Shown here piece after piece: positions 2,598 to 15,286 of a stretch of DNA of 15,286 nucleotides. Both the position numbers and the translations under genes were made by a program. Source of the DNA: a virus (Duplodnaviria; Heunggongvirae; Uroviricota; Caudoviricetes); IMG/VR virus record IMGVR_UViG_2711768167_000011, positions 1-15,286 of that record. One strand, written 5' to 3'. Under the pieces are notes generated by a model. That model did no database searches, was not told the DNA's origin, and saw only the letters and a list, made by a program, of their open reading frames with translations. Positions within the stretch are counted from its first letter, which is position 1; each line of letters starts with the position of its first letter.

Positions 2598-2940
2598 CTG
2601 GGGGCCTCGCAATAGATTGACCAAGATGTGCCCCTAAATAGGCCCCCAAATGTGACTTGATTTACGTTCCCCTGAGGAGAATTAAGGCGACTATTTGAGT
2701 AACATAAGTAAGGGTATGTGCTGATTATAAAGGCTTTTTGTGGGGTATGGTAGATTTCAGGAGAGGTGTGCATGGTGTCCCTGCAGAAATCATCTTAATT
2801 ATTATTATGTTGATTTATATGTAGTTTATTTTTGATTTTTTGTTTTTGTACCCGTTTTGTGCCCGTTTTATTCGATTCCCAATTTAAACTTCGATTCTAG
2901 AAAGGTGAGTAGGGGAGGTTGTCATTTCATGTATCATTAT

Positions 2941-2984
2941 TGTAGACACAGAATAATTACTCGCCTATCCTCACTGTAGACACA
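2941..2984 (+). promoter_or_regulatory. direct repeats upstream of the toxin-antitoxin operon (putative operator)
   Basis: Perfect 10-bp direct repeat TGTAGACACA at 2941..2950 and 2975..2984, 25-60 bp upstream of the antitoxin start; AGGAG at 2996..3000. Confidence 0.3.
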
Positions 2985-3008
2985 CAATAGATACAGGAGT
3001 TAACCCAC

Positions 3009-3257
3009 ATGCGCACACAGGTTGTATTGCAAAAATGGGGTAATAGCATTGCCCTTCGACTAACGGGAAACCTTAAAACCGTTCCGGGGTTTTCAGTGGG
3101 TGATATCGTCAACGTTGAAATTAGTGAAAAGGGGCTTTTTGTAGAAAAGCCTGCACGCCGTCGCCTGAGTGAAGCCGAATTACTCGCCGGGATAACGCCA
3201 GTTACAGCGCACGCGGACGAAATTGCCACCCCATTCAATGAGGAGGTTGATTACTGA
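3009..3257 (+). CDS. MazE/PemI/ChpS-family antitoxin (AbrB/SpoVT-type fold), 82 aa
   Basis: N-terminal KWGNSIALRL motif and C-terminal LAELLAGITP...EEV, resembling MazE as recalled; stop overlaps next start (TGATG at 3255..3259). Confidence 0.85.
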   Translation: MRTQVVLQKWGNSIALRLTGNLKTVPGFSVGDIVNVEISEKGLFVEKPARRRLSEAELLAGITPVTAHADEIATPFNEEVDY

Positions 3258-3601
3258 TGTTTGTACCTAAGCGTGGTGATATTTGCTGGCTGGATTTTGA
3301 GCCGCAGAAAGGAAAAGAGAGCGGAAAGTATCGCCCGGCACTCATACTATCCCATGAGCAATATAACCGACTCACCGGGCTTGTCATATGCTGCCCCATA
3401 AGTACGAGCATACGAAATGCTCCCACAGAAGTTCCGGTAACAAATCTGGACGCCCCCAGCGTGGTAGCAACCACACTCATTCAAACCCTTGACTGGCGTC
3501 AGCGGAAAGCGCGCTTAATCACAGAGGCAGAAGATGGGGTATTTAATGATGTGCTTGAAAGAGTCATTACCCTGATTGGTGGAGAGCATCTGCTTAAGTA
3601 A
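3257..3601 (+). CDS. MazF/PemK-family toxin (endoribonuclease family), 114 aa
   Basis: GDICWLDFEP...GKYRPALILS...LVICCPISTS pattern typical of the PemK/MazF family; translationally coupled to the upstream antitoxin. Confidence 0.85.
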   Translation: MFVPKRGDICWLDFEPQKGKESGKYRPALILSHEQYNRLTGLVICCPISTSIRNAPTEVPVTNLDAPSVVATTLIQTLDWRQRKARLITEAEDGVFNDVLERVITLIGGEHLLK

Positions 3602-3604
3602 AAG

Positions 3605-3622
3605 GAGGGCTGAGAAGCCCTC
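3605..3622. other. intergenic hairpin between convergent genes (weak terminator candidate)
   Basis: 7-bp stem GAGGGCT (3605..3611) / AGCCCTC (3616..3622), 4-nt loop; lies between the toxin stop (3601) and the stop of the convergent 423-aa gene (3645). No clean U-tract on either strand. Confidence 0.25.
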
Positions 3623-3644
3623 AACGTTACCAGAAATTTCCTTG

Positions 3645-4916
3645 CTATTCTTTCCAGTCAATCCCATCCAGTAAGCACCCTGCCTCATATTGCCCAACAA
3701 CCCAGTCAAGATTGCAGGACTCATAGAAAGCGAGGCGATTATACTGTGGCTCGTTTTTTACCAGACCACGAACGGAGCCGCGTTGCCAGTACAGGCACAG
3801 ATTGGCAAGAGGTGTGATCAGCACAGCATTGTCCGGGAAAAATGGAACGGTCACAGCCGGAAGATTCCCCAGCACGGGCTTTTTAATGATTTCCTCGTTA
3901 AGCAAAATTTCCTGATTCATCTGCGATGGATCAAGACGGTTTATCAAAGGCCATTGTTTACGGACCAGAGTATTGTGACTGCATACGGCCACAATGCCTT
4001 CCTGCCACTGTTCATCAATCATGGATTGCCAGGCATCCAGAACAAGTGCATCTATTGTATGGTGTGTACCGCGTGTATTGCTTGTCGGCGATGAAACAGA
4101 AAGACCGCTGATAACCCTTCCCGCTGCTTCGTTTCGAAACTTCTGCAACCATCCGACGCCGCAATCGTCACGGCCCGGATATGTTTCAGGATCAGATTGA
4201 TCGGCATAGTGTGTGCCGTTAAAACCAATCTGAATTAAATCCAGCCATTTCCGGCGTTCAAAAGCGGCACGGGCGCTTCCTTCAAGACCATTTGCGGACG
4301 CGTGAGCATCGACATTGTCGTAGCTCAACGCAAAATCAAAATTAACCTGCTCGCAGCGGTAGCCTCTTGAAACCAGTGAATGCGCCTGTAGTGGCGAACG
4401 GCGCTCGTGAGGTGGCGATGTACGTGCCAACGGCCCCGAAGCGTCTACCAGCACAACCTGACCTGATATATCCGTAACAGGCACGGGGGTTATTTCAGCA
4501 AGGAAATTTGCCTGCCATCCACTGGCAAGCGTTGCACTCTGGCGGGGAACGGGTTCAACTTCTGACGAATAGCGCGCAGTATCACCGGAAAAGTGCAAAT
4601 CCTTCGGATGTTTTCCGGTTATCGACTCGATAGCGCAATTGAAAACCATCTGAGACTGTTGATTTCGTTGTGATACAACATAATCAGCAGTGCAATTATA
4701 ACACTCAATGCCGTCGTTATTACCCCCACCGCTTGCAGTATGCAGGGTGTGAAGCTCAAGCTCACGCTCCAGTTTTTGATATTCATTGTCCAGCGCGCGA
4801 CGCGTCTCATCGCTTATGCTTGCTGTGTTTGCTTTCAGGCGATTCCGGGACATTAACTCCCTGAGTCGGCTCACTATATCAGCGCCGTGCAAATGTGAAA
4901 TATTCAGACCGCCCAT
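3645..4916 (-). CDS. hypothetical protein B (423 aa), downstream gene of the two-gene operon
   Basis: ATG at 4916..4914 overlaps the upstream gene stop (TAATG); corresponds to Met48 of the 470-aa ORF-track entry. Long uninterrupted frame; no Walker A, HNH or PP-loop consensus seen by eye. Confidence 0.7.
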   Translation of the reverse strand: MGGLNISHLHGADIVSRLRELMSRNRLKANTASISDETRRALDNEYQKLERELELHTLHTASGGGNNDGIECYNCTADYVVSQRNQQSQMVFNCAIESITGKHPKDLHFSGDTARYSSEVEPVPRQSATLASGWQANFLAEITPVPVTDISGQVVLVDASGPLARTSPPHERRSPLQAHSLVSRGYRCEQVNFDFALSYDNVDAHASANGLEGSARAAFERRKWLDLIQIGFNGTHYADQSDPETYPGRDDCGVGWLQKFRNEAAGRVISGLSVSSPTSNTRGTHHTIDALVLDAWQSMIDEQWQEGIVAVCSHNTLVRKQWPLINRLDPSQMNQEILLNEEIIKKPVLGNLPAVTVPFFPDNAVLITPLANLCLYWQRGSVRGLVKNEPQYNRLAFYESCNLDWVVGQYEAGCLLDGIDWKE

Positions 4917-5626
4917 TACTGCCACCCCCGGCAGAGTTCTCTGCCCTCCGCAAGGTCGCGCATTTTTTCTGGATTCTGTCGCGCCGCGCTCCATTGTACA
5001 GGTGAAGGGGCGTTCCTGATTGCGTGGCTTACCGAATCCGGCAGTTTCTCCGGGCAATAACGAAGCGGATTGGAGGCATCGCTCTCAATATCGTTAATCC
5101 GGCCGCGAATCAGCCTGACACTTTCAACAATATCTGCCACTTTCAGTGTTTCACATATTTTCTTTTCTGCGTTATACAGCGGCTGGCCAAGCAGCTCACA
5201 TAAACCACGAATCAATAACAGAGCAGGGATCAGCTCGTTAATCAGTCCGGGAAGTGCTTTTGCAAATATCTCTGCCCGCAACTTATTATCAATGCTTTCG
5301 TAAGCACAGCCAGCCTCTGCCGCGTTATAACGACACTCCAGTAACATGATGCGCGCCTCATCATGCAATACCCGCAGACGCTCAAGATTTTCTCGCGCCA
5401 CACCCGCCTGAATGGATAATTTTGCGGAGGCTTCCGTTTTTGCGCCCAGCGCAGACAGGATTGAGTTCTGCCAGTCACGATCGAGAGACTCCAGCTCCCC
5501 TTTCGTCTGTTCGATAGTCGCTTCCAGATTGGTGATTAATGATTCCTGTTCGCTGAGTTTTGCGCTGGCCGTATCAAACTGTGCTTTACATGCCTGATGC
5601 TTGGCGCTTGCCTGAGTTATATCCAT
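4916..5626 (-). CDS. hypothetical protein A (236 aa), predicted helical/coiled-coil N-terminal half
   Basis: ATG at 5626..5624 with AGGAG 6 nt upstream (rc of 5633..5637); heptad-like charged/hydrophobic N-terminus (LSEQESLITNLEATIEQTKGELESLDRDW); stop TAA at 4918..4916 overlaps the start of gene B. Confidence 0.7.
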   Translation of the reverse strand: MDITQASAKHQACKAQFDTASAKLSEQESLITNLEATIEQTKGELESLDRDWQNSILSALGAKTEASAKLSIQAGVARENLERLRVLHDEARIMLLECRYNAAEAGCAYESIDNKLRAEIFAKALPGLINELIPALLLIRGLCELLGQPLYNAEKKICETLKVADIVESVRLIRGRINDIESDASNPLRYCPEKLPDSVSHAIRNAPSPVQWSAARQNPEKMRDLAEGRELCRGWQ

Positions 5627-5676
5627 TGTTTGCTCCTGTAATACATTTTTTACTTACGCGGATTTTTTCCATATTG

Positions 5677-5735
5677 CGTAATACATTCCAGCCGATTTTG
5701 TTCTCGTAATACGCTCACAATACTGTTGTATTACG
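5677..5735. promoter_or_regulatory. divergent promoter/operator region with GTATTACG-family repeats
   Basis: CGTAATAC at 5677..5684 and 5705..5712, GTATTACG at 5728..5735; the last two form a perfect 8-bp inverted repeat with a 15-bp spacer. Sits between the start of gene A (5626, minus) and the small plus-strand gene (5791). Confidence 0.4.
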
Positions 5736-5790
5736 CTTTCTTATATCGCGGGTGTTAAATCCAGGCATAAGCAATCAGGGAGGCAACACG

Positions 5791-6024
5791 ATGAAAAAAC
5801 AAAAGAAAATGCGATACGTATTACGCTGTATTCGTATCCCGCACGAAATCGACCATAAAATAAATCAGATATGTGAGGACAGAGAGATGAACTACTCCCA
5901 GTGCGTCAGAATGTTTATCAGTCAGGGAATTAAGGCCGGGGAAACGCAGGAAGAAGACCGCAACGGGCGCAATGTAGCGGGGGATGTGTGGGCCTGGGCA
6001 AATGACCAGAACTACACGACGTAA
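5791..6024 (+). CDS. small DNA-binding-like protein (77 aa), possible ribbon-helix-helix regulator
   Basis: ATG at 5791 with GGGAGG (5777..5782) upstream; the ORF-track start at 5752 is GTG without an SD. Predicted beta-strand then helices (MRYVLRCIRIPHEIDHKINQICEDRE...), judged by eye only. Confidence 0.5.
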   Translation: MKKQKKMRYVLRCIRIPHEIDHKINQICEDREMNYSQCVRMFISQGIKAGETQEEDRNGRNVAGDVWAWANDQNYTT

Positions 6025-6074
6025 TACAGAAATAACGTAGCCGGTTACACTCGCTGGCTGTGTTATACAAATCA

Positions 6075-6257
6075 CTATGAAGTTTTCAACTTCCTGCGCT
6101 TAGTGATGCGTACAAACGACTCAAGCGTACAAAAACAAGCCCCACACTCAATATTATTGCACTGGTAATACGTTTTGTAGATGTTTTGTTCGTGTTCTTC
6201 CAACGAACGACTACGGGTTCGGGTTGAAGCGCCACAGGCCGGGCAAGGGAAAGACAT
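6075..6257 (-). CDS. Ogr/Delta-family zinc-finger transcriptional activator (60 aa)
   Basis: Four-Cys pattern CPACG...(22 aa)...CNNIECGACF with the conserved YYQCNN-type core of P2 Ogr / P4 Delta as recalled; ATG at 6257 with AGGAG 8 nt upstream. Confidence 0.7.
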   Translation of the reverse strand: MSFPCPACGASTRTRSRSLEEHEQNIYKTYYQCNNIECGACFCTLESFVRITKRRKLKTS

Positions 6258-6618
6258 ATCACGCTCCTCTTACTGGTGTGAAATTTGACCTATTATATCT
6301 TCTGCCGCCCCCTCTGGCTGTATCAAATAAACCCGCAGCAGTCGCCGCGTATTACGCACGGACGCACCGTTCCCATGCTCACTCGTCACATTCCCCGTAT
6401 CAGTTCTCTCTTACCGTAAGAACGGCTCTGGCTGGCGATAAAACTAACCCGGTCGGGCATTCCCGCAGTCTTTAGAGAAAATGTAATTTACCCCCTGAAA
6501 CGCGGGCTGTTCCCCCGTCACCTGCGCGCGAAAAACTCACCGTTTTTTGTGCACGCACGAAATCGCCCTCCGGGTGCGCCAGTACTGGGCTGGATGGGCA
6601 AAAAGTTACTCTAAAAAA

Positions 6619-6645
6619 TTGTGCAAATTTGTGCACTTTTGTGCA
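6619..6645. promoter_or_regulatory. three phased TTGTGCA direct repeats (putative operator or activator site)
   Basis: TTGTGCA at 6619, 6629 and 6639, exactly 10 bp apart; a fourth copy at 6547..6553. Confidence 0.3.
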
Positions 6646-6871
6646 GATGAACAATAGCGTGAAAAAGAGTGCTTTTGAGAGATTTTTTATGGCAACTGCG
6701 CCGCGTGTATTACGTTTTTTACCATCCCCGCCGCGCATGTACATACTTCATTTTTCTGCCAGACAACAGGGCAACTCCCCGTGACTGACAGCCCCAAAAA
6801 ATCAATGATTGATGTTGCATTTTTGTTAAAGGTTAGACCAGTTGTTTTAGGGCTCTGCCTCATAATCCGGT

Positions 6872-7185
6872 GGGGGGTGCGCAAAGCGGTTACAACGGTT
6901 ACAACACTCAAAAACACCACTTAACAGCATGATTTTAATGGATATTGTTTGTAACCGCTTTGCGGTTACACTGCGGTTACAACGGTTACAGGTTTCAAAA
7001 AGCACTTTATTATCAATCAATTAAAAACTTAACCTGTAACCGCCTGTAACCTAACAAAACGGTTACATGTAACCGCGTTGTAACCGCTTTTGTAACTCAT
7101 CGGACCAGTTATAATATATTGATATATAATACAAAAATAAGTAATTTTAAATTTGTAACCGTTGTAACCGCTTTGCGCACCCCCC
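6872..7185. repeat. iteron array (14 copies of GGTTACA/TGTAACC) bounded by 33-bp perfect inverted repeats; candidate replication origin or recombination substrate
   Basis: IR-left 6872..6904 is the exact reverse complement of IR-right 7153..7185, extendable to 36 bp with one mismatch. GGTTACA at 6888, 6897, 6964, 6975, 6984, 7061; TGTAACC at 6950, 7035, 7045, 7068, 7079, 7154, 7163. Internal palindromes GTAACCGCTTTGCGGTTAC (6951..6969) and GGTTACATGTAACC (7061..7074). Confidence 0.6.
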
Positions 7186-7380
7186 CCCAAACTTTAGCGC
7201 GACCCTTTAAAATGTTAATTAAACTCACTTACTCTGTATCTCTCTCGTTAACTTTCTGTTATTGAAATGTATCTCTCCACTGTTTGACTCTTTCTCATAA
7301 TCAGGGGAAGCAAAAAATTGATGGCGGCACTACTGCAATATGGCCACCATTGCATTGCTGTTACCGTTGGTTCTGGCCAA

Positions 7381-7412
7381 CAAAAAAGGTCAGCGGGAAA
7401 CTGACCTCTTTT
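7381..7412 (-). terminator. rho-independent terminator downstream of the primase-integrase operon
   Basis: 7-bp stem AGGTCAG (7387..7393) / CTGACCT (7401..7407), 7-nt loop, flanked by A6 (7382..7387) and TTTT (7409..7412), so bidirectional in form; about 25 nt past the integrase stop at 7437. Confidence 0.6.
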
Positions 7413-7436
7413 GCTGTGAATGCGGCGTTCTGCGGG

Positions 7437-8441
7437 TTACTCTGCTGGCTCTTTTTCTTCGGTGATCACTATGTTGGCTACCGGGTTAAATCTCATGGCA
7501 TCTGCCAGATAATCCGGTGCAAAATGTGCGTATGCCATAGTCTGCTGAATTGTCGCATGCCCAAGGATTTTTTGTAGCGCAAGAATGTTGCCACCGTTCA
7601 TCACAAAGTGACTGGCGAATGTATGCCGCAATACATGCGCAGCCTGCCCCCTCGGTAAATCGGGTTTTATTTTTTTTAATGCCCGGCAAAACTCTCTGTA
7701 CTTCACATCAAACAGTCGCCCGGTTTCTTTTGTTTTTACGGCATCGCATATTTCCTGCGACACAGGCACCGTTCTTTTTCTACCGTTTTTGGTTTCCAGA
7801 AACGTTATTCTGTTATGAACTATTTGCTCTCCATGCAATCTGCTGGCCTCACTCCAGCGGGCTCCGGTACAAAGACACAAGAGCGCAACCCTTCGTTGAT
7901 CTCCATTCAGCCCGTCAAGCAACAATGTGACCTCGTTTTTTGATAAAAAGGCCATTTCCCGCTGCTTTACATAAAGAACAGGAATACCACGAACCGGATG
8001 CTCTGCATCCCACAAACCGATCTTTTTCAGGGCTGTAAACATCCCCGATAATCTGTTCATGTATCTGTTTGCTGAGGACGGCTTTAATCCTTCCGCAATT
8101 TTCTGCGATCGCCATGCAATGATTTTTAATTTGTTGAGTTCTGCCGCAAACATGTCAGCTCCAAGCTCATTAATAATTTTGCCAAGTTGCTGTTTATCCG
8201 TGTTTGCCTTTCGCCTGTGCTGACCGTGATAGACCCACCACAATTCCAGTAAATCGCTAAGCGTTCTCCGGTCGCGATAGCCCTGTATAAACTCGCGCTT
8301 TTCGGCGTTCGCTATGATGTACCGTTCAGTTGCTGTAGCTATCGATTTTTTGTCAAATATTCTTCTGATGCGCTTCCCTTTACGTCCGCATGGCCTGATA
8401 TCGAGCAGCCACCGCCCATCATGCATCTTTCTGATCGGCAT
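7437..8441 (-). CDS. P2-type tyrosine integrase (334 aa)
   Basis: N-terminus MPIRKMHDGRWLLDIRPCGRKGKRIRRIFDKKS closely resembles recalled P2 Int (DGRYEVDIRPTGRNGKRIRRKFDKKS); catalytic HVLRHTFASH and C-terminal Tyr (QTMAYAHF). Start ATG at 8441 with AGGAGG upstream; the ORF-track start at 8477 lacks an SD. Confidence 0.85.
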   Translation of the reverse strand: MPIRKMHDGRWLLDIRPCGRKGKRIRRIFDKKSIATATERYIIANAEKREFIQGYRDRRTLSDLLELWWVYHGQHRRKANTDKQQLGKIINELGADMFAAELNKLKIIAWRSQKIAEGLKPSSANRYMNRLSGMFTALKKIGLWDAEHPVRGIPVLYVKQREMAFLSKNEVTLLLDGLNGDQRRVALLCLCTGARWSEASRLHGEQIVHNRITFLETKNGRKRTVPVSQEICDAVKTKETGRLFDVKYREFCRALKKIKPDLPRGQAAHVLRHTFASHFVMNGGNILALQKILGHATIQQTMAYAHFAPDYLADAMRFNPVANIVITEEKEPAE

Positions 8442-8443
8442 GT

Positions 8444-11113
8444 TTAACTCCCCTCCTTGTAACTGAATATCCGGCATTTCAGTACTTCCGGCTCTCTGGC
8501 CTCGGCGACCCCTCTTCCGGCGTTTGCCTGTCTGGAGACCTCACTACGAATGGTTTTGCGGCCTGTCAAAGGTCGGGAACGTCCGGCTGCGAGCAACTCA
8601 ATCATTTCGCGGTCAGTTCGGATCTCCACGCGGTGGATAGCGGCAGCCTGTGCCAGTTGCGGAATACTGATAGCAATCCCCTCGCGGCATCCCTTGCCGT
8701 AGTGGTTTACACCGTATTTTGTTATGCCGTCCAGATAGTCGAACGCCTCCCAGAACGCTATTACTTCCGGCAAGTCATCCGTTACCGCTTTAACTTGTTC
8801 CGCTGCCATTCGTTCCAGTTCCTGGCATGTGGCATTAAGCCATTCATCCGGGATATCAATAACGCATTTCAGCGCCCTGACCAGCGCAATAAGTTGCGCG
8901 TGATTTTTGGCAATACGGGGATGGAGAATATTTTCGCAACCGCAAAGGCGGGTCGTTTCAGGCTCTGAGAGCGCCAGAAACATTTCCATAATTGCCCGTT
9001 CACGGCTGACTGCCCGATGAATAAACCCTGACACCTTCTCAACGGGGTAGAGTTCCAGTCGTCTCGCCGCCAGCCGGGTATCAGACGAGTGGCGCTTTTT
9101 ATCGGTATATATGCGAATCAGTCGCTCAATAATTGCAAGTGAGGCGTTTACCCTGGCATTCTGTGCAATCACGATAGCGCCCTTAAAATCCGGGTCATAG
9201 GTGTTGTTATTGTTGGTCTTAACGCCACGAACGCCGATACCGCCGCCGTTATAGAGGCTTTTCAGGTTATCGAAGTCAAACGCACCTCTTTTTTGCGCAT
9301 TGCCTCCCCGGTCTGCTTCAATCAGAACAACAGGTAATCCGGCGACCTGTCCAAAGGTGCGCTTCCAGCCCGCCTCTGATCCTTTGGTTGGATCAACGCC
9401 TTCATAGTTGTCACGACCGCACAACCGCCAGCAAAAATCAATCAATGTTGATTTACCCGTTCCGGGCTCCCCGGTGACTTCAAGGAAGGGGAAGGATTCT
9501 TCTTTATCCCGGATTTGTTCGCTGAACAGGGAGCCCAACCAGAAAGCCAGGGTAATAATTCCTTTTTCACCAAAAGCCAGCCAGAGATCTTCCACCCAGG
9601 ACTCTGTAAACTCATCCGGTTTTTTGTAGTTAATCTGTAATGTGGGTTTTTCGCTTAATGGTTTTGCGTTTATGCCATCAATTTCAAAATAATCTTCGTC
9701 ATTGATTTCATAAGTTTTTCCCTTGTAAACAGCAATATCATTAAACAGCCATGCCCCAATCGCCTTGTTGTATCCGATAAAATCCTGACCAATAACCTCT
9801 TTTATTGCGGGAAGGTCATTTTTTATTAATGCGTCAAGGTGCGCAGTTGTTCCGGTATAAATGCCGCCTTTTGCCACATGCAACAGGCGTTTTTTAAATT
9901 CAGATGCGGATGTCAATTGTCCTGATGTAAAGGTGTTTTTCACCGTAGCACCATCCGGGAACGTAACACGGAAGTAATACCATGCTTCATCCGTGTCATT
10001 ATTTCGAATGTAATAAAGCGGCGCTGGGTTACAGTTTGCGATTTCTTTTACTGCGCCAGATTCCTTAAGTGCAATTTTGCGCGCTTCATCCTCATCAACA
10101 CTTCTCTCATTCTTGGCACGCTCTACAGCTTTCATATAGCGCTCAATGTCCAGTTTGAACCAGAAAACACGGTTATCAAAAGTAAAATGAAATTCCTTCC
10201 GCTCACGAAAGGAAAATATTATTAGCGCCTTATCTCTCGGAGATTTCGCCAGCAATAAATCACCGTAATGACGGTATCTTTTCACATCATGGCCACGCAG
10301 CTTTCCGGCGATGTGTAAATCATTCCAGTCGCGTTTATTGTTGTTTTTACCTGGCAACGCCGCTGCCGTTCTCCAGCCGTCTTCGGCGCTGCGTTCTGCA
10401 TGTTTTTTCGCGTAACGCTCACCCGCACGCCCGTTATCCAGCGCCCACACAATAACCGGACGGGGATTATCCCCGCACAGCTTCGCCAGCTCTTCCAGCG
10501 CCTTATCAGGGTAGTTCACGGCAGACATGACAGAAACGGCCGCAATGCCATTCTGGTTAAGGCTGATGGCATCAAAGATGCCCTCACAAATCCAGATTTC
10601 TTTGGCCTTGCTTAAATCTGCTCCCGGATAAGCCCACCACAACCCCTTGTAGCTGCCGGAAAAATTCGCCTTGCGCGCGAAGCGTCCCGGTCTGTCTATG
10701 ATGCGCTCCCACCACACGCCGTCAGCCAGCGTAAAACGCACAGTAGCGGCCTGTTCGCCGTTTTCCTTGTCCTGGTATCGCTCCTGAGTAAATGCGCCCT
10801 TCAGTGGCCCCACAGCAATATTGCGCGCCTCCTGAAGATAAGCTGCCACCGCTGCATATGGCTCGTCTTTCGTGCTGATATAACGATCTGACCATGATGA
10901 AAACACATCCGGGTAAAGTTCTTTGGTCAGCAGGTCTGTACCGCATTTATTTTCGCGCCCACAGTGTACGATGTACGGCCTTTCAAGGCTGGTAAACAAC
11001 TCTTTCTTTCCACATTGCGGACAAACACCATACCGGAGGTAGTTATTTTCTTCTTTGAAGTTGTAATCACGGATAAGACGGTTAATAATCTCTTTTCTGA
11101 TGTCAGATTTCAT
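8444..11113 (-). CDS. bifunctional primase-helicase (P4 alpha-like / PICI pri-rep-like), 889 aa
   Basis: N-terminal zinc-binding CPQCGKK...HCGRENKCG, Toprim-like ICEGIFDAISL, P-loop GEPGTGKST and Walker-B-like VVLIEAD. ATG at 11113 with GGAG 8 nt upstream preferred over the GTG at 11137. Confidence 0.85.
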   Translation of the reverse strand: MKSDIRKEIINRLIRDYNFKEENNYLRYGVCPQCGKKELFTSLERPYIVHCGRENKCGTDLLTKELYPDVFSSWSDRYISTKDEPYAAVAAYLQEARNIAVGPLKGAFTQERYQDKENGEQAATVRFTLADGVWWERIIDRPGRFARKANFSGSYKGLWWAYPGADLSKAKEIWICEGIFDAISLNQNGIAAVSVMSAVNYPDKALEELAKLCGDNPRPVIVWALDNGRAGERYAKKHAERSAEDGWRTAAALPGKNNNKRDWNDLHIAGKLRGHDVKRYRHYGDLLLAKSPRDKALIIFSFRERKEFHFTFDNRVFWFKLDIERYMKAVERAKNERSVDEDEARKIALKESGAVKEIANCNPAPLYYIRNNDTDEAWYYFRVTFPDGATVKNTFTSGQLTSASEFKKRLLHVAKGGIYTGTTAHLDALIKNDLPAIKEVIGQDFIGYNKAIGAWLFNDIAVYKGKTYEINDEDYFEIDGINAKPLSEKPTLQINYKKPDEFTESWVEDLWLAFGEKGIITLAFWLGSLFSEQIRDKEESFPFLEVTGEPGTGKSTLIDFCWRLCGRDNYEGVDPTKGSEAGWKRTFGQVAGLPVVLIEADRGGNAQKRGAFDFDNLKSLYNGGGIGVRGVKTNNNNTYDPDFKGAIVIAQNARVNASLAIIERLIRIYTDKKRHSSDTRLAARRLELYPVEKVSGFIHRAVSRERAIMEMFLALSEPETTRLCGCENILHPRIAKNHAQLIALVRALKCVIDIPDEWLNATCQELERMAAEQVKAVTDDLPEVIAFWEAFDYLDGITKYGVNHYGKGCREGIAISIPQLAQAAAIHRVEIRTDREMIELLAAGRSRPLTGRKTIRSEVSRQANAGRGVAEAREPEVLKCRIFSYKEGS

Positions 11114-11161
11114 ATATAAAACTCCACCCCACTGCACCTTTTGCCGTGGGGTTTTTATTAA

Positions 11162-11461
11162 TTACTCGTTACTTATTGCTTTGGCAATCCCGGCGGTTTC
11201 AGCACTATGCCATGAAAAAATTCCGCCAGAAGTATGCATTCCTGACTTAATCACTCGTAATTCCCGATAAAGAATGTTAGTTAATGATTCCATTTCATTA
11301 ATTTGCACTGGCATTCTCTCACTGGTATTAATTTCACCTGTCAATGCTGAAAGGAGCGCAATAACATTTATTACATCTTCAAGATTCTCAATGGAATCTT
11401 CCGTGAAAAAACCAGCGTATTCTTTTTTGTATATATTGCGGATATTCTGATTTTTAGACAT
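11162..11461 (-). CDS. hypothetical protein (99 aa)
   Basis: ATG at 11461 with GGGGAG 5 nt upstream; sits immediately upstream of the primase on the same strand. Confidence 0.5.
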   Translation of the reverse strand: MSKNQNIRNIYKKEYAGFFTEDSIENLEDVINVIALLSALTGEINTSERMPVQINEMESLTNILYRELRVIKSGMHTSGGIFSWHSAETAGIAKAISNE

Positions 11462-11528
11462 AAAAACTCCCCGACCCGTTAAGATCGAAATATAAATTTA
11501 ATTCAGTTATCAGTTGGTAATTCGGTAA

Positions 11529-11747
11529 TCAGTCGGAAAGCTGCGTCACCTTCAACGCTTTGAAATGTGTCATTCCCAGCTCTTCCAGCCCTTCGGCTGC
11601 GCGGCGTATGGCTTCGCCCGGTCCTGTTCCGTATACCGTTGCATGTGCATGTTTGGTTAACCCACGTTTATTAACGGCATAACCCAACACAAAGAAACGT
11701 TTTTCACCACTGCCATTATTTTTACGGGATATTGAACGGCTTTTCAT
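11529..11747 (-). CDS. hypothetical small protein (72 aa)
   Basis: ATG at 11747 overlaps the upstream stop (ATGA), indicating translational coupling. Confidence 0.45.
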   Translation of the reverse strand: MKSRSISRKNNGSGEKRFFVLGYAVNKRGLTKHAHATVYGTGPGEAIRRAAEGLEELGMTHFKALKVTQLSD

Positions 11748-11932
11748 TTCTTCACCTTTACCACTGATGCTGTGAGTTCTTCTTCTGGCAATTGATATTT
11801 CGGCGCAATTTCTTCCGTATACCTGATAGCGTCCCTTGCCGCTTTTCCTTTTGATTTATATTTACGTATCGTGTGGAAGTTTTCTTCCTCTCCTGTTACC
11901 ACATTACGCAATTTAATATGAATCTCGTACAT
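11744..11932 (-). CDS. hypothetical small protein (62 aa)
   Basis: ATG at 11932 (Met11 of the ORF-track entry, MYEIHIKL...) with GGAGG 7 nt upstream; 2 nt after the upstream stop. Confidence 0.45.
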   Translation of the reverse strand: MYEIHIKLRNVVTGEEENFHTIRKYKSKGKAARDAIRYTEEIAPKYQLPEEELTASVVKVKK

Positions 11933-11934
11933 CG

Positions 11935-12117
11935 TTACCCCTCCATGATTTTTACTGCGCATTTGTGGGTTAATCGCCCCTGTTTGTCATTGCGGGAATA
12001 TGCCATACGACAGGCATCAAGCCATACATCGTCATAAGTCGGATATTCCCGGGAATGAATCATCTGGCGAACGTCGCCGTTCTGGTAGTTAATCAGGGTG
12101 ATAAGGAGCTTAAACAT
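11935..12117 (-). CDS. hypothetical small protein (60 aa)
   Basis: ATG at 12117 (Met27 of the ORF-track entry, MFKLLITLINY...) with GGGAGG 6 nt upstream; overlaps the 3' end of the Icd-like gene by 8 nt. Confidence 0.4.
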   Translation of the reverse strand: MFKLLITLINYQNGDVRQMIHSREYPTYDDVWLDACRMAYSRNDKQGRLTHKCAVKIMEG

Positions 12118-12283
12118 GGCACGCCTCCCGGACACGGATACGGGCAACAAAGACCAGACGAGATGCCGGAAGCAGGGCGCGCGCTTCGCGCTCACTGGCA
12201 GCGGTAACGGTATGAAGGCGGATATTTTTACCGTGGCACTGCATAAAGCGCCAGATAAAATCAGGGCGTGTTGATATAGCCAT
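12110..12283 (-). CDS. Icd-like cell-division-inhibitor family small protein (57 aa)
   Basis: C-terminal 57 aa of the 175-aa ORF-track entry, starting at ATG 12283 with AAGGAG 8 nt upstream; FIWRF...SEREARALL...LVFVARI pattern resembles Icd-like proteins of P4-like elements as I recall them. Confidence 0.5.
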   Translation of the reverse strand: MAISTRPDFIWRFMQCHGKNIRLHTVTAASEREARALLPASRLVFVARIRVREACHV

Positions 12284-12699
12284 TTTGGCGGCTCCTTCTA
12301 CTGATTTACGGAGTCTCGCCAGCACGCTGCTAAACATGGTGGCGGGACGTAACAGGGTTAGCAGACTGGCGTAGAAGAAACCAGCGAGCGCAAAGGCTCC
12401 CCCATTACGCCCCGCCATAATACGGGGTAGGGTGGAATTACGGGCACAAAAAAACCGCATTACGGAAATATAGCGGCTACCCGCTTCTACTATCAGGCTG
12501 CTAAACCCGGCACCCGCTTTATGAGGTGCGGGCAAACGATACGCCATGACAAAAAAGCGAGTCAAGCAATATTGCAAATTATTTTTGGGCGATTGCGCTG
12601 AGTGATTGATTTTTAAGAGTAAAAAAGTCATAATCATTTCTGGCTATTGTTTCTTATTGTTGATTTCAGGTGCACTAAATGCACATCCTTGACTGGTTG

Positions 12700-12729
12700 G
12701 CTCGCTGGCTTTAGCGAGCTTCTTTTTTG
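12700..12729 (+). terminator. plus-strand intrinsic-terminator-like hairpin with no plus-strand CDS upstream
   Basis: 7-bp stem GCTCGCT (12700..12706) / AGCGAGC (12713..12719), 6-nt loop, followed by TTCTTTTTTG (12720..12729). Confidence 0.3.
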
Positions 12730-13190
12730 CTCTGCTGTCAGTGATCGGCCTCCTTCCCTCATATGTAGTCATGTGCTCATTCCAGTCAGGTGGATAATGC
12801 TGTATTACCGGACATCCGGTTATGATGTTTAAAGCGTTTGTTTGTTTATGCCACGTGGAGAATATACCCCCACCGCCATTACTTGTATTTATCATAACAG
12901 TTCACCCAATTCGGTTAATGTAACCGGAATAACTCAATTTCATACACTGTAAATAAATGCTGATTTTAAACTTAGCTCCTTGGAATATATTTCTTACGTG
13001 TGACGCACAGGTGAAAATATCCCTCTGATAGTCCATTTTCTTTTATTTTGTCACATCTGTTTACTCCGGTTCCCTTAACAAGGGTAGAGCATCTTTTAAA
13101 CCATGAATGCATCTTCGGTTAAGTGATGTTTCTTATTGTATGAAATATTTAGGCGCATATCGCGCCATGCTGACTATAAAATGAAAATAA

Positions 13191-13412
13191 TTAAGCCTGA
13201 AAACGTTGTTGTTTTCTTTCTTCTATCCAGTCGATAATTTCCTCTTCAACCCATGCAACCGCGCGAGGGCCTATTTTTATTGGTTTGGGGAATATATCAG
13301 ATTTTATATCTTCGTAAATTCGAGCTCTTGATCTCCCTGTGATTTCAATGACTCTGGGGAGTCTTATTAATTTTTGAATCCGCCTTTCGCTGGTCTGTGA
13401 GTATGCTGACAT
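13191..13412 (-). CDS. alpA: AlpA-family (excisionase-like) phage transcriptional regulator (73 aa)
   Basis: LIRLPRVIEITGRSRARIYEDIK...FPKPIKIGPRAVAWVEEEI matches the AlpA/Xis-like helix-turn-helix pattern; ATG at 13412 with AGGAGG 5 nt upstream. Confidence 0.85.
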   Translation of the reverse strand: MSAYSQTSERRIQKLIRLPRVIEITGRSRARIYEDIKSDIFPKPIKIGPRAVAWVEEEIIDWIEERKQQRFQA

Positions 13413-13942
13413 ATTGGCCTCCTGTATATGCTGACATTTTACGTTAGCTCACAGCGGGAGCATGTAAGATCTCGCGGTCGTCTGCGGGACGAGAAAAATC
13501 ATAAACAACGAAAAGCGGATTTGTAAATCAGGTCGATTTTCAGGCGGGGTTGACAGGGACAGTGAGATTTGTTCCATGTGTGCAATATACATTTTAGGAC
13601 CACTTTAAGCCACTTTAAACCGCCAGAAAGCGACAAAGAATAACAAGTTAGTGCCAGAAAGGTTTGCTGACTTACCCTTTTAGGTACCAGAAAAAGCCCT
13701 TTCAGGTCGGTGTAATGCTTGTGAACGCTGAAATAGTGGTTTCTGAAAACAAAAAAAGAATTGAAAATGCGATACATATCACAAAATAATATCGATAAAA
13801 TAGTTTGATTTTTTTTGTTTTTATTAAAAGCACTGGTTAATTGTAAAAAATTAATTATAAATCAAATGGATATATCTGTTTTTTTAGGGTAAAAATCACT
13901 AGGTGCTTTTAGCAGTATCTTATTCTATTGATTTTAAAAGAT

Positions 13943-13976
13943 AAAAAAATCGGCGTGTCCACATATTGTCCACGCC
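13943..13976 (-). terminator. rho-independent terminator candidate downstream of the right-hand integrase
   Basis: Stem GGCGTG (13952..13957) / CACGCC (13971..13976), preceded on plus strand by A7 (13943..13949), i.e. a U7 tail on the minus strand; about 50 nt past the integrase stop at 14024. Confidence 0.45.
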
Positions 13977-14023
13977 TTGAGTTTAATTCAGCCGCTTGGG
14001 ATAGTTTAGTTTGTTGAGTTGAT

Positions 14024-15286
14024 TCAGTCTGTTTCGTTAGTCCATTTAAAATCATAGGGGGAAATATATGCCGTCTTGCAGGTGTCGAGATAATCAGCCC
14101 ACCATTGCAACATTCGGCGGCGTTCCTGCATATGTTCAGCTCTGTGAACGTATGCAGCCCGGACACTGCCTCTTTCCCTGTGACTCATCTGAAGCTCAAC
14201 GGCTTCTCTTGTCCACCTGCCTGACTCTGTCAGCGCCGAACAGGCCATGGTCCTGAATCCGTGACCACAAATATCTTTTTTTGTGTCGTATCCCATGTGG
14301 CGTAATGCCTTGTTAATGGTGTTTTCGCTCATTGGTTTTATCTGGTAATGGTCGCTGGGGAAAATAAACACTTCATCACCGGATATATTTCTTATATCGT
14401 CAAGAAGCTGCATGGCCTGAGTGGGTAAAGGGATGGCGTGAGGGGTTCCCATTTTCGTTCCACGATATGAATATTTTACGCCTTCTATTTTTTCGCGTTC
14501 TGCTGGTATTACCCACATTGATTTATCAAAGTCAATTTCATTCCAACGAGCAAAACGCAATTCACTTGAGCGAATAAAAATTAATAAATTTAATTTTAGT
14601 GCAAATTGCGTTAATAACCGTCCATTCATCTTATGGTGGTAATCATTTATTTTGCCAAGTAATTCAGGTAATCGCTCAAGGGGAAGAGCGGGGCGATGTT
14701 TGGTTTTATTAGTTTCGATTGCACCGTTCAGTTCCTGCGCTGGATTGTATTTAATCATTCCATTCTGTACAGCGTAGCGCATAATGGCGTTCATTCGCTG
14801 CTTGTTACGTGATGCTGTCTCAAGCACTCCTTTGTCTTCCATTTTGCGTAAAGGAATCAGTAGATCCATGGTTGTGATCTCGTTAATTGGCCTTTTACCA
14901 AGAATGGGGAAGATGTGGTTTTCCAGGTCTTTTAAGACTTTTTGCGCGTGTAATTCGCTCCACCCCTTTTTCCGGCTGTGCCATTCTCTGGCAACGTCTT
15001 CAAAAAGCACTATTTGAGGTTTTGGTGTGTGCAGTGGGTCAATGCCTTTAGCCAGGCTCGCCAGATATTCATCACGAGCGTTCCTTGCCTGTGCAAGTGT
15101 TACGGCAGGATAAATGCCTAAAGCTCGGGTCGTTTCTTTACCGTTGATAACCTTGCGAAAGCGCCAGTATTTTGAGCCGTTGGGGTGAACATAGAGATAC
15201 AGGCCTTTCCCGTCACGAAGTTTTTTAATTTTATTGTTGTCCTTATCTGGTTTGGCGTTACGTACAGCTATATCAGTCAGTTTCAT
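14024..15286 (-). CDS. P4-type tyrosine integrase (420 aa)
   Basis: N-terminus MKLTDIAVRNAKPDKD...GKGLYLYVHPNGSKYWRF typical of P4-family integrases; catalytic GHGFRTMA and C-terminal RAAYVHRAEH; the start codon is the last 3 nt of the window, so RBS and upstream att lie outside. Confidence 0.9.
   Translation of the reverse strand: MKLTDIAVRNAKPDKDNNKIKKLRDGKGLYLYVHPNGSKYWRFRKVINGKETTRALGIYPAVTLAQARNARDEYLASLAKGIDPLHTPKPQIVLFEDVAREWHSRKKGWSELHAQKVLKDLENHIFPILGKRPINEITTMDLLIPLRKMEDKGVLETASRNKQRMNAIMRYAVQNGMIKYNPAQELNGAIETNKTKHRPALPLERLPELLGKINDYHHKMNGRLLTQFALKLNLLIFIRSSELRFARWNEIDFDKSMWVIPAEREKIEGVKYSYRGTKMGTPHAIPLPTQAMQLLDDIRNISGDEVFIFPSDHYQIKPMSENTINKALRHMGYDTKKDICGHGFRTMACSALTESGRWTREAVELQMSHRERGSVRAAYVHRAEHMQERRRMLQWWADYLDTCKTAYISPYDFKWTNETD

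Follow-up and report, generated by a model that had tools for sequence, protein, structure and literature searches.

A helper-type integrase gene coupled to the primase gene of an Escherichia coli satellite of P2-like phages, with no attachment site of its own found in the island

Positions 2772–15286 of a 15,286-nucleotide (nt) stretch of viral DNA (IMG/VR record IMGVR_UViG_2711768167_000011; the whole stretch is called the window here) formed one recurring unit in Escherichia coli, beside tRNA-Arg and yfdC. This island is a satellite of P2-like phages with a Gram-negative phage-inducible chromosomal island (PICI) or P4-related layout, and it carries two integrase genes. The first, int1, lies at the far end of the island, where the initial annotation had correctly placed a P4-type integrase, and it is int1, not the second gene, that integrates the island, at a tRNA-Arg or a gcd-hpt site. 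The second, int2, directly follows the primase gene and is a core gene of the satellite family, kept despite a change of primase family. The specificity-determining domains of its product, Int2, appear to match those of particular P2-like phages. The core-binding and catalytic body has been swapped repeatedly for alleles of different P2-like lineages, with the ribosome-binding junction and the C-terminal tail staying constant, and no attachment (att) site of Int2's own was found in the island. Tentatively, Int2 may be an orphan, helper-matched integrase that would act in trans on helper att sites, most plausibly excising a derepressed P2-like prophage. The features at the centre of this account were:

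8444–11113, minus strand: primase-helicase, 889 amino acids (aa), the satellite replication protein; the start matched RefSeq ("toprim domain-containing protein").
8439–8457, minus strand: coupling junction AGGAGGGGAGTTAAACATG, read from the sequence, with the Shine-Dalgarno (SD) motif in the primase open reading frame (ORF), the primase TAA, a 2-nt gap and the Int2 ATG.
7437–8441, minus strand: Int2, an intact P2-family heterobivalent tyrosine integrase of 334 aa and of allele type A, its C-terminal tail being satellite-specific.
About 7385–7412, minus strand: predicted operon terminator, a GGTCAG-N7-CTGACC hairpin followed by TTTTTTG on the gene strand.
6869–7190, no strand assigned: predicted replication origin, an AT-rich centre surrounded by CGGTTACAA iterons that point both ways, with 36-nt inverted repeats as its outer borders.
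14024–15286, minus strand: int1, a P4-type integrase, the island's own (Pfam Arm-DNA-bind_3, Phage_int_M and Phage_integrase).

Across the end of the primase gene and the start of int2 the minus strand read ACAAGGAGGGGAGTTAAACATGCCG / ACAAGGAGGGGAGTTAAACATG. The primase TAA (8446–8444) and the Int2 ATG (8441–8439) were 2 nt apart, and AGGAGG at 8457–8452 lay inside the primase ORF, 10 nt before the Int2 ATG. In a mechanical ORF list the integrase frame extended as far as the ATG at 8477; RefSeq, on identical DNA, started the gene at 8441 and gave it 334 aa. No promoter-like site was found in a scan of the minus strand between primase and Int2, and the hairpin with its T run followed the integrase gene (its palindromic stem was reported on the plus strand by the scanner). 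The close junction, the SD motif within the primase, the terminator and the single operon had all been proposed in the initial annotation, and each was borne out. Primase and Int2 thus form one operon with tight translational coupling. The junction motif ACAAGGAGGGGnnTAAnnATG and the 2-nt gap were retained in all 11 of the extracted satellites of types A, B and D. Int2 reads as the last cistron of an immunity-controlled early/replication operon, at the head of which the satellite appears to use RNA immunity of the P4/P1 type.

The primase contained an N-terminal CxxC zinc ribbon, a Toprim domain and a P-loop helicase with the Walker A motif GEPGTGKS. Its Pfam matches were Toprim_2 (7e-13), Toprim_3 (4e-9) and, weakly, DUF5906, and its likeness to P4 alpha was at the motif level only, with the same domain order.

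Int2 belongs to a lineage different from that of the island's P4-type integrase, as had been suspected from the sequence at the outset. The Pfam matches were Int_N (5e-24, residues 57–154) and Phage_integrase (7.5e-20); the solved chains matched were 5c6k (5e-80, residues 49–322) and 5dor (9e-58), both labelled only "Integrase", and the HP1 integrase 1aih (4e-48). Int2 was 51% identical to the P2 integrase and 81% identical to Xuanwuvirus-type phage integrases. Arm-binding and P2/HP1-type core-binding domains were present, with full-length alignment to phage integrases that included residues 1–55. The catalytic R, K, H-x-x-R, H and Y were all found, and the motifs TGARW, TKNGxxR, HVLRHTF and LGH...YAH were kept in Int2 types A–D.

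Two type B copies (loci L009 and L010; L numbers denote the loci compared) differed by 0.63 synonymous (dS) and 0.048 non-synonymous (dN) substitutions per site, a dN/dS of 0.077, and the window and L011 copies of int2 differed at 21 synonymous and 5 non-synonymous positions. Overall, dN/dS was 0.06–0.08 within the satellites. With the catalytic residues also in place, Int2 is intact, appears functional and is under purifying selection, which disposes of the possibility, raised in the initial annotation, that the gene is a decayed remnant.

The initial annotation had called for a survey of primase-integrase adjacency in related elements. The adjacency recurred family-wide, in E. coli, Salmonella and metagenome contigs, and so did not arise by a recent insertion in one strain. 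An integrase followed the primase in the E. coli loci L001, L002 and L006–L011, in the IMG/VR and metagenome loci L015–L019, L095–L100 and L102, and in L177 and L179–L182; locus L101 ends at the primase, so that the downstream gene falls outside its sequence. At least 80% of the primase gene was present in 67 complete E. coli genomes. The origin segment was present in 63, and the match ran into an annotated integrase gene in 60 of the 60 matches listed. The pair was found at two insertion sites, argW and gcd-hpt, with different int1 genes; whichever of two positions the capsid module occupied; and in the L008 lineage, where the primase gene was only 64% identical in DNA. Loci with a DUF927-type primase (Salmonella L175 and L176; E. 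coli L181) still carried Int2. The L181 primase (4865–8542, Zn_Ribbon_Prim/DUF927 type) had no BLASTP similarity to the window primase and was followed by Int2 after 10 nt; in L175/L176 the primase (5876–9990, same type) was followed by Int2 after 455 nt.

Alignment-based scans of viral and metagenome contigs returned 160 primase relatives. In every one that was at least 59% identical and had downstream sequence, an integrase lay 2–15 nt from the primase stop. Among relatives at 41–52% identity in the same scans, none had an integrase directly after the primase. Five of the more distant primases (L020–L024, 50–52% identical) were on viral contigs of 10–38 kilobases (kb), four of them 30–38 kb, with a P2-type int on the other strand at the end of the contig; the satellite replication module would thus be common to some P2-like phages.

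The Int2 proteins formed types A, A' (Salmonella), B, C, C2, D and E, which were 47–58% identical to each other, except A/A' and C/C2 (74–75%). The closest phage integrases and the identities by domain were:

Type A (window): Xuanwuvirus P884B11, Chuche, PhiR44_2 and Shae_phiSM, 81%.
Type B: vB_EcoM-569R5 and vB_EcoM-705R2, 87%.
Type C: SEN4, SEN5 and phiT5282H, 82.5%.
Type D: no phage integrase above 58%.
Type E: none of three reference phage integrases above 50%.
Int2 against cognate phage: core-binding domain 77–90%, catalytic domain 84–96%, tail 23–33% in types A and B (64% in type C).
Int2 between satellite types: core-binding domain 32–51%, catalytic domain 58–66%, tail 64–73% for A against B and A against D.

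The tail ...FNPVAN..EKEPAE was present in Int2 types A, B, D and C2; that of type C (L008) was phage-like. The gene was retained through at least six allele replacements. In the clearest pair, L100 (type B) and L018 (type D), the satellites were 95–100% identical except in int2, in orfU (a small gene directly upstream of the primase) and in one 200-bp patch. In P2-like phages the site of integration depends on the core-binding domain, and the regulatory module of Int, C and Cox evolves as a unit (PMC3448106).

The recombination sites that accompany such integrases in phages were sought in the satellites. DNA similarity between int2 and the closest phages ended at the ORF, and alignment of phage attP with the region downstream of int2 was at chance level. 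In the phages, P-arm repeats stood at the 3' end of int as two copies of TGTCCAC, TGTCCAT or TGTCTAC in an 11-bp register, inside the tail-coding sequence (SVHxVST) of Chuche and 569R5 and directly behind the stop codon of SEN5, with the core and P' arm within the 300 bp that followed. The satellite tail was without these phage arm repeats. For the closest phage group of type A the crossover core was mapped to the 5' end of pdxB; with up to 3 mismatches allowed, this cognate core matched nothing in the window, and no clusters of the cognate arm heptamers were found in the satellites. The 11-mers common to the satellites and three phage att regions were at chance level, and one of them lies in int2 itself, encoding "KIL". 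A cognate attP would have arm repeats of the form tgTGGaCa flanking a core identical to attB, and no such site was found for Int2. Int2 is therefore a member of the P2-integrase family by protein, with a recombination module that is incomplete in cis.

One arm-type pair was present elsewhere in the island:

13953–13976, plus strand: GCGTGTCCACATATTGTCCACGCC, a P2-group Int arm-type repeat pair and int1 terminator hairpin (arm consensus tgTGGaCa, PMC3448106).

The pair (13956–13973) was perfect, in an 11-bp register, just after the int1 stop, and matched 18 of 20 bases of the Chuche P arm; on the gene strand GCGTGTCCACATATTGTCCACGCC also formed a hairpin with a T run. It was found only in satellites with an argW-type int1, whatever their Int2 type, and in none of the gcd/hpt type. 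It was rejected as an Int2 site on these grounds, since a pair limited to satellites with argW-type int1 cannot account for a family-wide Int2. All 11 copies with visible host flanks sat at int1-type sites with int1 at the junction. The suggestion that Int2 gives the island an extra excision route gained no backing here, since neither an arm cluster beside int2 nor a cognate core was found in the island.

The iteron segment said to follow the integrase was real, with many copies of CGGTTACAA. The iteron block covered about 320 nt, and its 36-nt inverted repeats, 97% complementary, bracketed a 248-nt segment; the layout of the array resembled P4 ori and crr. Type A satellites had CGGTTACAA iterons, types B and D shared GGGTTACAA/AGGTTACAA, and the type B satellite L010 had GGTCACAA. 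Iteron sequence varied independently of Int2 type and changed with the primase C-terminus. The last approximately 300 nt of the primase gene (8444–8750) and the iteron block diverged together (CGGTTACAA against GGGTTACAA against GGTCACAA), a pattern that recognition of the iterons by the primase C-terminus would produce. One haplotype block comprised the primase C-terminus, int2 and the origin, and the spacer after int2 was about 90–95% conserved across types A, B and D. The iterons were rejected as Int2 sites because types B and D shared an origin allele and L010, also of type B, had another.

The favoured explanation, put forward with reserve, is that Int2 serves the satellite by acting on its helper. 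Derepression of the satellite would produce Int2 along with the replication operon, and Int2 would then act in trans on the cognate att sites of the helper, most plausibly together with host integration host factor (IHF) and helper Cox. P4 E protein binds C and so derepresses P2, and abortive P2 induction was described long ago (PMC2995052 and work cited there). Cox represses Pc, which drives C and integrase, is required for excision, and activates P4 (PMC3936717). A derepressed P2-type prophage would make Cox, and Cox would shut off the Pc operon encoding C and Int, so that the prophage would be short of integrase. A type-matched Int2 would free the helper genome, leading to the replication and late genes that the satellite needs.

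Several points weigh against this explanation. Excision in trans on helper DNA is a step that we infer. P4, the best-studied P2 satellite, is not known to need helper excision. Identity to known phage integrases was 81–87% and not near-identity, which makes a shared core specificity likely but does not prove it, and types D and E were without a known phage counterpart above 58%. The type A carrier ECCNB12-2 had an empty pdxB site and one type B carrier showed no other P2-type int, so the satellite would often live without a cognate prophage. As the primase C-terminus, int2 and the origin form one haplotype block, the allele pattern is possibly due in part to linkage and not to selection for helper matching. 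The early operon would probably also be switched on for a short time after infection, a timing that suits an integration role equally well.

Integrases of mobile elements serve integration by default, and Int2 might be a second integration and excision system of the satellite, giving it a P2-like attB or a secondary site to enter if that of int1 cannot be used. Allele swapping would then change insertion sites, and transient expression of the early operon on entry into a new cell would come when integration is needed. The argW-type-int1 satellites do carry one P2-type arm-repeat pair. The gene order of P4 also speaks for such a role. The initial annotation had set integrase and alpha at opposite ends in P4-like prophages; this is right for the P4 prophage but not for the P4 genome record, in which alpha, the terminator, crr, attP and int lie in a row on one strand, so that a neighbourhood of replication gene and integrase is not foreign to such elements. 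We nevertheless regard a second integration system as rather unlikely. No attP was found, phage homology ended at the ORF and the arm repeats of the int 3' end were replaced; a cognate core was missing, as was the arm pair in satellites with gcd/hpt-type int1; no non-coding segment co-varied with Int2 type between near-identical backbones; and the flanked copies were all at int1 sites. A role at the satellite's own replication products is less probable again. P2 and P4 package monomeric circles, and Int2 could resolve satellite multimers or process replication products near the origin, keeping monomeric circles for P2-type terminases. Its place between replication gene and origin and its co-translation with the primase would suit this, as would the retention of that position even after replacement of the primase family. 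The site should then co-vary with types that are only 32–51% identical in the core-binding domain, whereas the downstream spacer was highly conserved and the origin alleles cut across types B and D and L010. In addition, Int2 keeps an arm-binding domain, which simple resolvase-type tyrosine recombinases lack, and the match of its alleles to different helper-phage integrases would be left unexplained.

About equally doubtful is that Int2 works as an interference weapon, occupying helper att sites or joining the helper integrase in mixed multimers by means of its matched body, which its altered tail would then disable, thereby blocking helper excision or integration and lessening competition for capsids. 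Satellites commonly impair their helpers, and tyrosine recombinases make contact with neighbouring protomers through the segment that follows the catalytic Tyr; a helper-matched body with a conserved satellite-specific tail across types A, B, D and C2 would fit such an agent. The catalytic residues, which a pure blocker would not need, were under purifying selection, however, the conserved tail is more simply explained by recombination breakpoints in the conserved 3' catalytic coding region, and type C (L008) has a phage-like tail. Passive capture is very improbable. PICIs do capture helper genes, occasionally integrases (PMC10111431), and linkage within the block of primase 3' end, int2 and origin could keep a functionless helper gene in position, but the low dN/dS held at dS up to 0.63, the ORFs were intact with SD motif and spacing conserved in every member, and the gene survived the allele replacements and the change of primase family. 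Least credible of all is an invertase or recombinase dedicated to the inverted-repeat-flanked origin segment, as the initial annotation had suggested. The nearly perfect inverted repeats directly downstream of int2 invite this reading. All 63 E. coli genomes with the segment nevertheless had it whole, colinear and as one aligned piece, and only one orientation was seen in all aligned loci, where a switch would give both; inversion of the origin was rejected on that evidence. The repeats themselves consist of origin iterons that vary independently of Int2 type.

A further gene may bear on the helper-directed explanation:

11162–11461, minus strand: orfU, a 99-aa helical protein directly upstream of the primase (AlphaFold model, predicted local distance difference test score 69).

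The orfU product had conserved ends and a hypervariable centre. Its allele was concordant with Int2 type in 20 of 21 satellites, L180 being the exception, with the two genes separated by the conserved 2.7-kb primase gene. Only about 90 relatives were found, in E. coli and Salmonella; there was no Pfam or PHROG match, and the sequence did not resemble P4 epsilon or ORF106. P4 has its antirepressor gene in the same operon as alpha, two ORFs upstream, and C and int were adjacent in the P2-like phages examined. As speculation, orfU could be an antirepressor-like partner of Int2. The two might even make up an activation kit, in which orfU would neutralise the cognate C as P4 epsilon does and Int2 would supply the missing integrase, so that a non-inducible helper is induced and excised; we consider this unlikely as it stands, though C and int, adjacent and evolving as one module in P2-like phages, would explain why orfU and Int2 alleles travel together.

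The remainder of the island, with the int1 att repeat, contained the following features:

2772–2791, plus strand: int1 att repeat, a 20-nt copy of the tRNA-Arg 3' end and the left end of the satellite; E. coli matches begin at 2772.
3009–3601, plus strand: MazE/MazF-type toxin-antitoxin pair at the distal satellite end (Pfam PemK_toxin 1e-24; RefSeq names).
3645–4916, minus strand: P2-family major capsid homologue, 423 aa as annotated (Pfam Phage_cap_P2 1.5e-73, tblastn, RefSeq coding sequence).
4916–5626, minus strand: 236-aa coiled-coil protein upstream of the capsid gene (weak coiled-coil-type match; scaffold-like by position only).
6075–6257, minus strand: Ogr/Delta-like zinc-finger late activator (RefSeq name; Pfam Ogr_Delta in related loci).
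12110–12637, minus strand: Icd-like ORF overlapping the immunity RNA region (RefSeq "host cell division inhibitor Icd-like protein"; PHROG repressor-type families).
12335–12542, minus strand: P4/P1-type RNA immunity elements (C4 antisense, isrK/seqA-like, a1b1 target; Rfam).
13191–13412, minus strand: AlpA-family regulator, excisionase-like (Pfam Phage_AlpA 5.5e-17).

In the order of the minus strand these ran int1; AlpA; the C4, isrK and a1b1 RNAs; the Icd-like ORF; small ORFs; primase; Int2; origin; Ogr/Delta; coiled-coil protein; capsid; and MazEF. In identical E. coli loci tRNA-Arg lay about 180 nt beyond int1. As in PICIs, int, alpA and pri had the same direction, the origin was downstream of pri and the insertion site was specific. 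An immunity RNA of the C4/isrK type lay between alpA and pri, with both RNAs above their Rfam gathering scores (C4 73 bits, gathering 45; isrK 50.6 bits, gathering 50); the c4-a1b1 score was 27.6 bits. The capsid homologue was about 36% identical to P2-like phage capsids by tblastn, and its gene was paired with the coiled-coil gene in every locus compared. The pair (3645–5626 in the window) was placed between AlpA-like and Icd-like genes in related satellites instead. The Ogr/Delta gene, together with the P2-family capsid homologue, suggests that a helper would induce and package the island. The P2 cos 19-mer was absent from the satellite and no enrichment of P2 cox-boxes was seen in it.

Positions 1–2771 of the window belonged to another, older island, in which a second P4-type integrase (1407–2624) and a PapB/FocB-type regulator region were found. 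This older island directly adjoins tRNA-Arg in other E. coli strains; the satellite is inserted between the tRNA and the older island, giving a tandem array. Approximately 10 copies of the motif GTATTACG / CGTAATAC stood near gene starts of the late zone (5637–5740, 5817, 6019, 6164, 6348 and 6706), and these copies (5637–6722) may be regulator binding sites. Two GTGTCTAC repeats on the minus strand, 34 nt apart at 2942–2983, closely preceded mazE; for all their likeness to integrase arm repeats of the SEN5 type, an antitoxin operator is more likely.

Whatever its mechanism, a satellite family of E. coli and Salmonella with its own P2-type capsid gene keeps a helper-type second integrase as a core gene. 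If the helper-directed explanation is true, it would be a new interaction between satellite and helper, in which the parasite takes over the site-specific recombination of its helper besides transcription, capsid size and packaging, and it would explain how satellites of non-inducible P2-like prophages obtain a usable helper genome. The naturally swapped alleles would then provide, on a common scaffold, a set of closely comparable integrases that differ in core specificity, useful for studying and engineering how heterobivalent integrases choose their targets.

The literature search on second or helper-type integrases in P2 satellites returned a single sentence, on extra integrases that occur occasionally in the late zone of Gram-negative PICIs and resemble helper-prophage integrases (Tommasini, Mageeney & Williams 2023, PMC10111431). 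No description was found in the literature searched of such genes as a constant feature of a P2-directed family, of their fusion with the replication operon, of the loss of att or of repeated re-matching to different phage lineages. The PICIs of that study have the same four zones as the island: int and AlpA; a dynamic zone with C4/isrK; primase and origin; and captured helper late genes, often capsid, which in the island are of P2 type within the PICI layout. There the extra integrase is occasional, whereas here it is a constant core gene of the family, and it sits in the replication operon between primase and origin, att-less, selected and repeatedly re-matched.

With P4 the island shares P2-like helpers, a P4-type integrase at a tRNA, an AlpA/Vis-type regulator, RNA immunity of the C4/CI type, a primase-helicase followed by terminator and iterons, and an Ogr/Delta-type activator. 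P4 also acts in trans on the helper immunity module, through epsilon on C. Unlike P4, the island has its own P2-family capsid homologue, and the integrase beside its replication gene is helper-type, without attP and additional to the P4-type integrase. The unusual part is this helper-type integrase beside a replication gene without an att site. The canonical P4-like set comprises Psu, Sid, epsilon and a PF03288-type alpha in addition to Delta, AlpA and integrase (SatelliteFinder, PMC8628076). Psu, Sid, epsilon and a Pox_D5-type alpha were not detected in the island with Pfam on ten proteins and with PHROGs, the Ogr/Delta gene and two short ORFs being outside the Pfam scan. As tested, then, the island falls short of the canonical set, and current satellite catalogues may miss such satellites.

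The P2-family phage integrases (P2, HP1, Xuanwuvirus P884B11/Chuche, vB_EcoM-569R5, SEN4/SEN5) have the same three domains and catalytic residues as Int2. A phage int follows the C repressor gene in the Pc operon, abuts attP and has P-arm repeats at its 3' end, whereas Int2 follows a primase and has another tail. A division of recombination machinery between two genomes has a parallel in the PICI-like element (PLE) of Vibrio cholerae, which reportedly uses the helper protein PexA as a directionality factor, with the PLE's serine integrase excising the satellite. In both cases the machinery would be split over satellite and helper genomes and active only with both present; in the arrangement proposed here, by contrast with PLE, a tyrosine integrase of the satellite would act on the helper, with the helper's own Cox.

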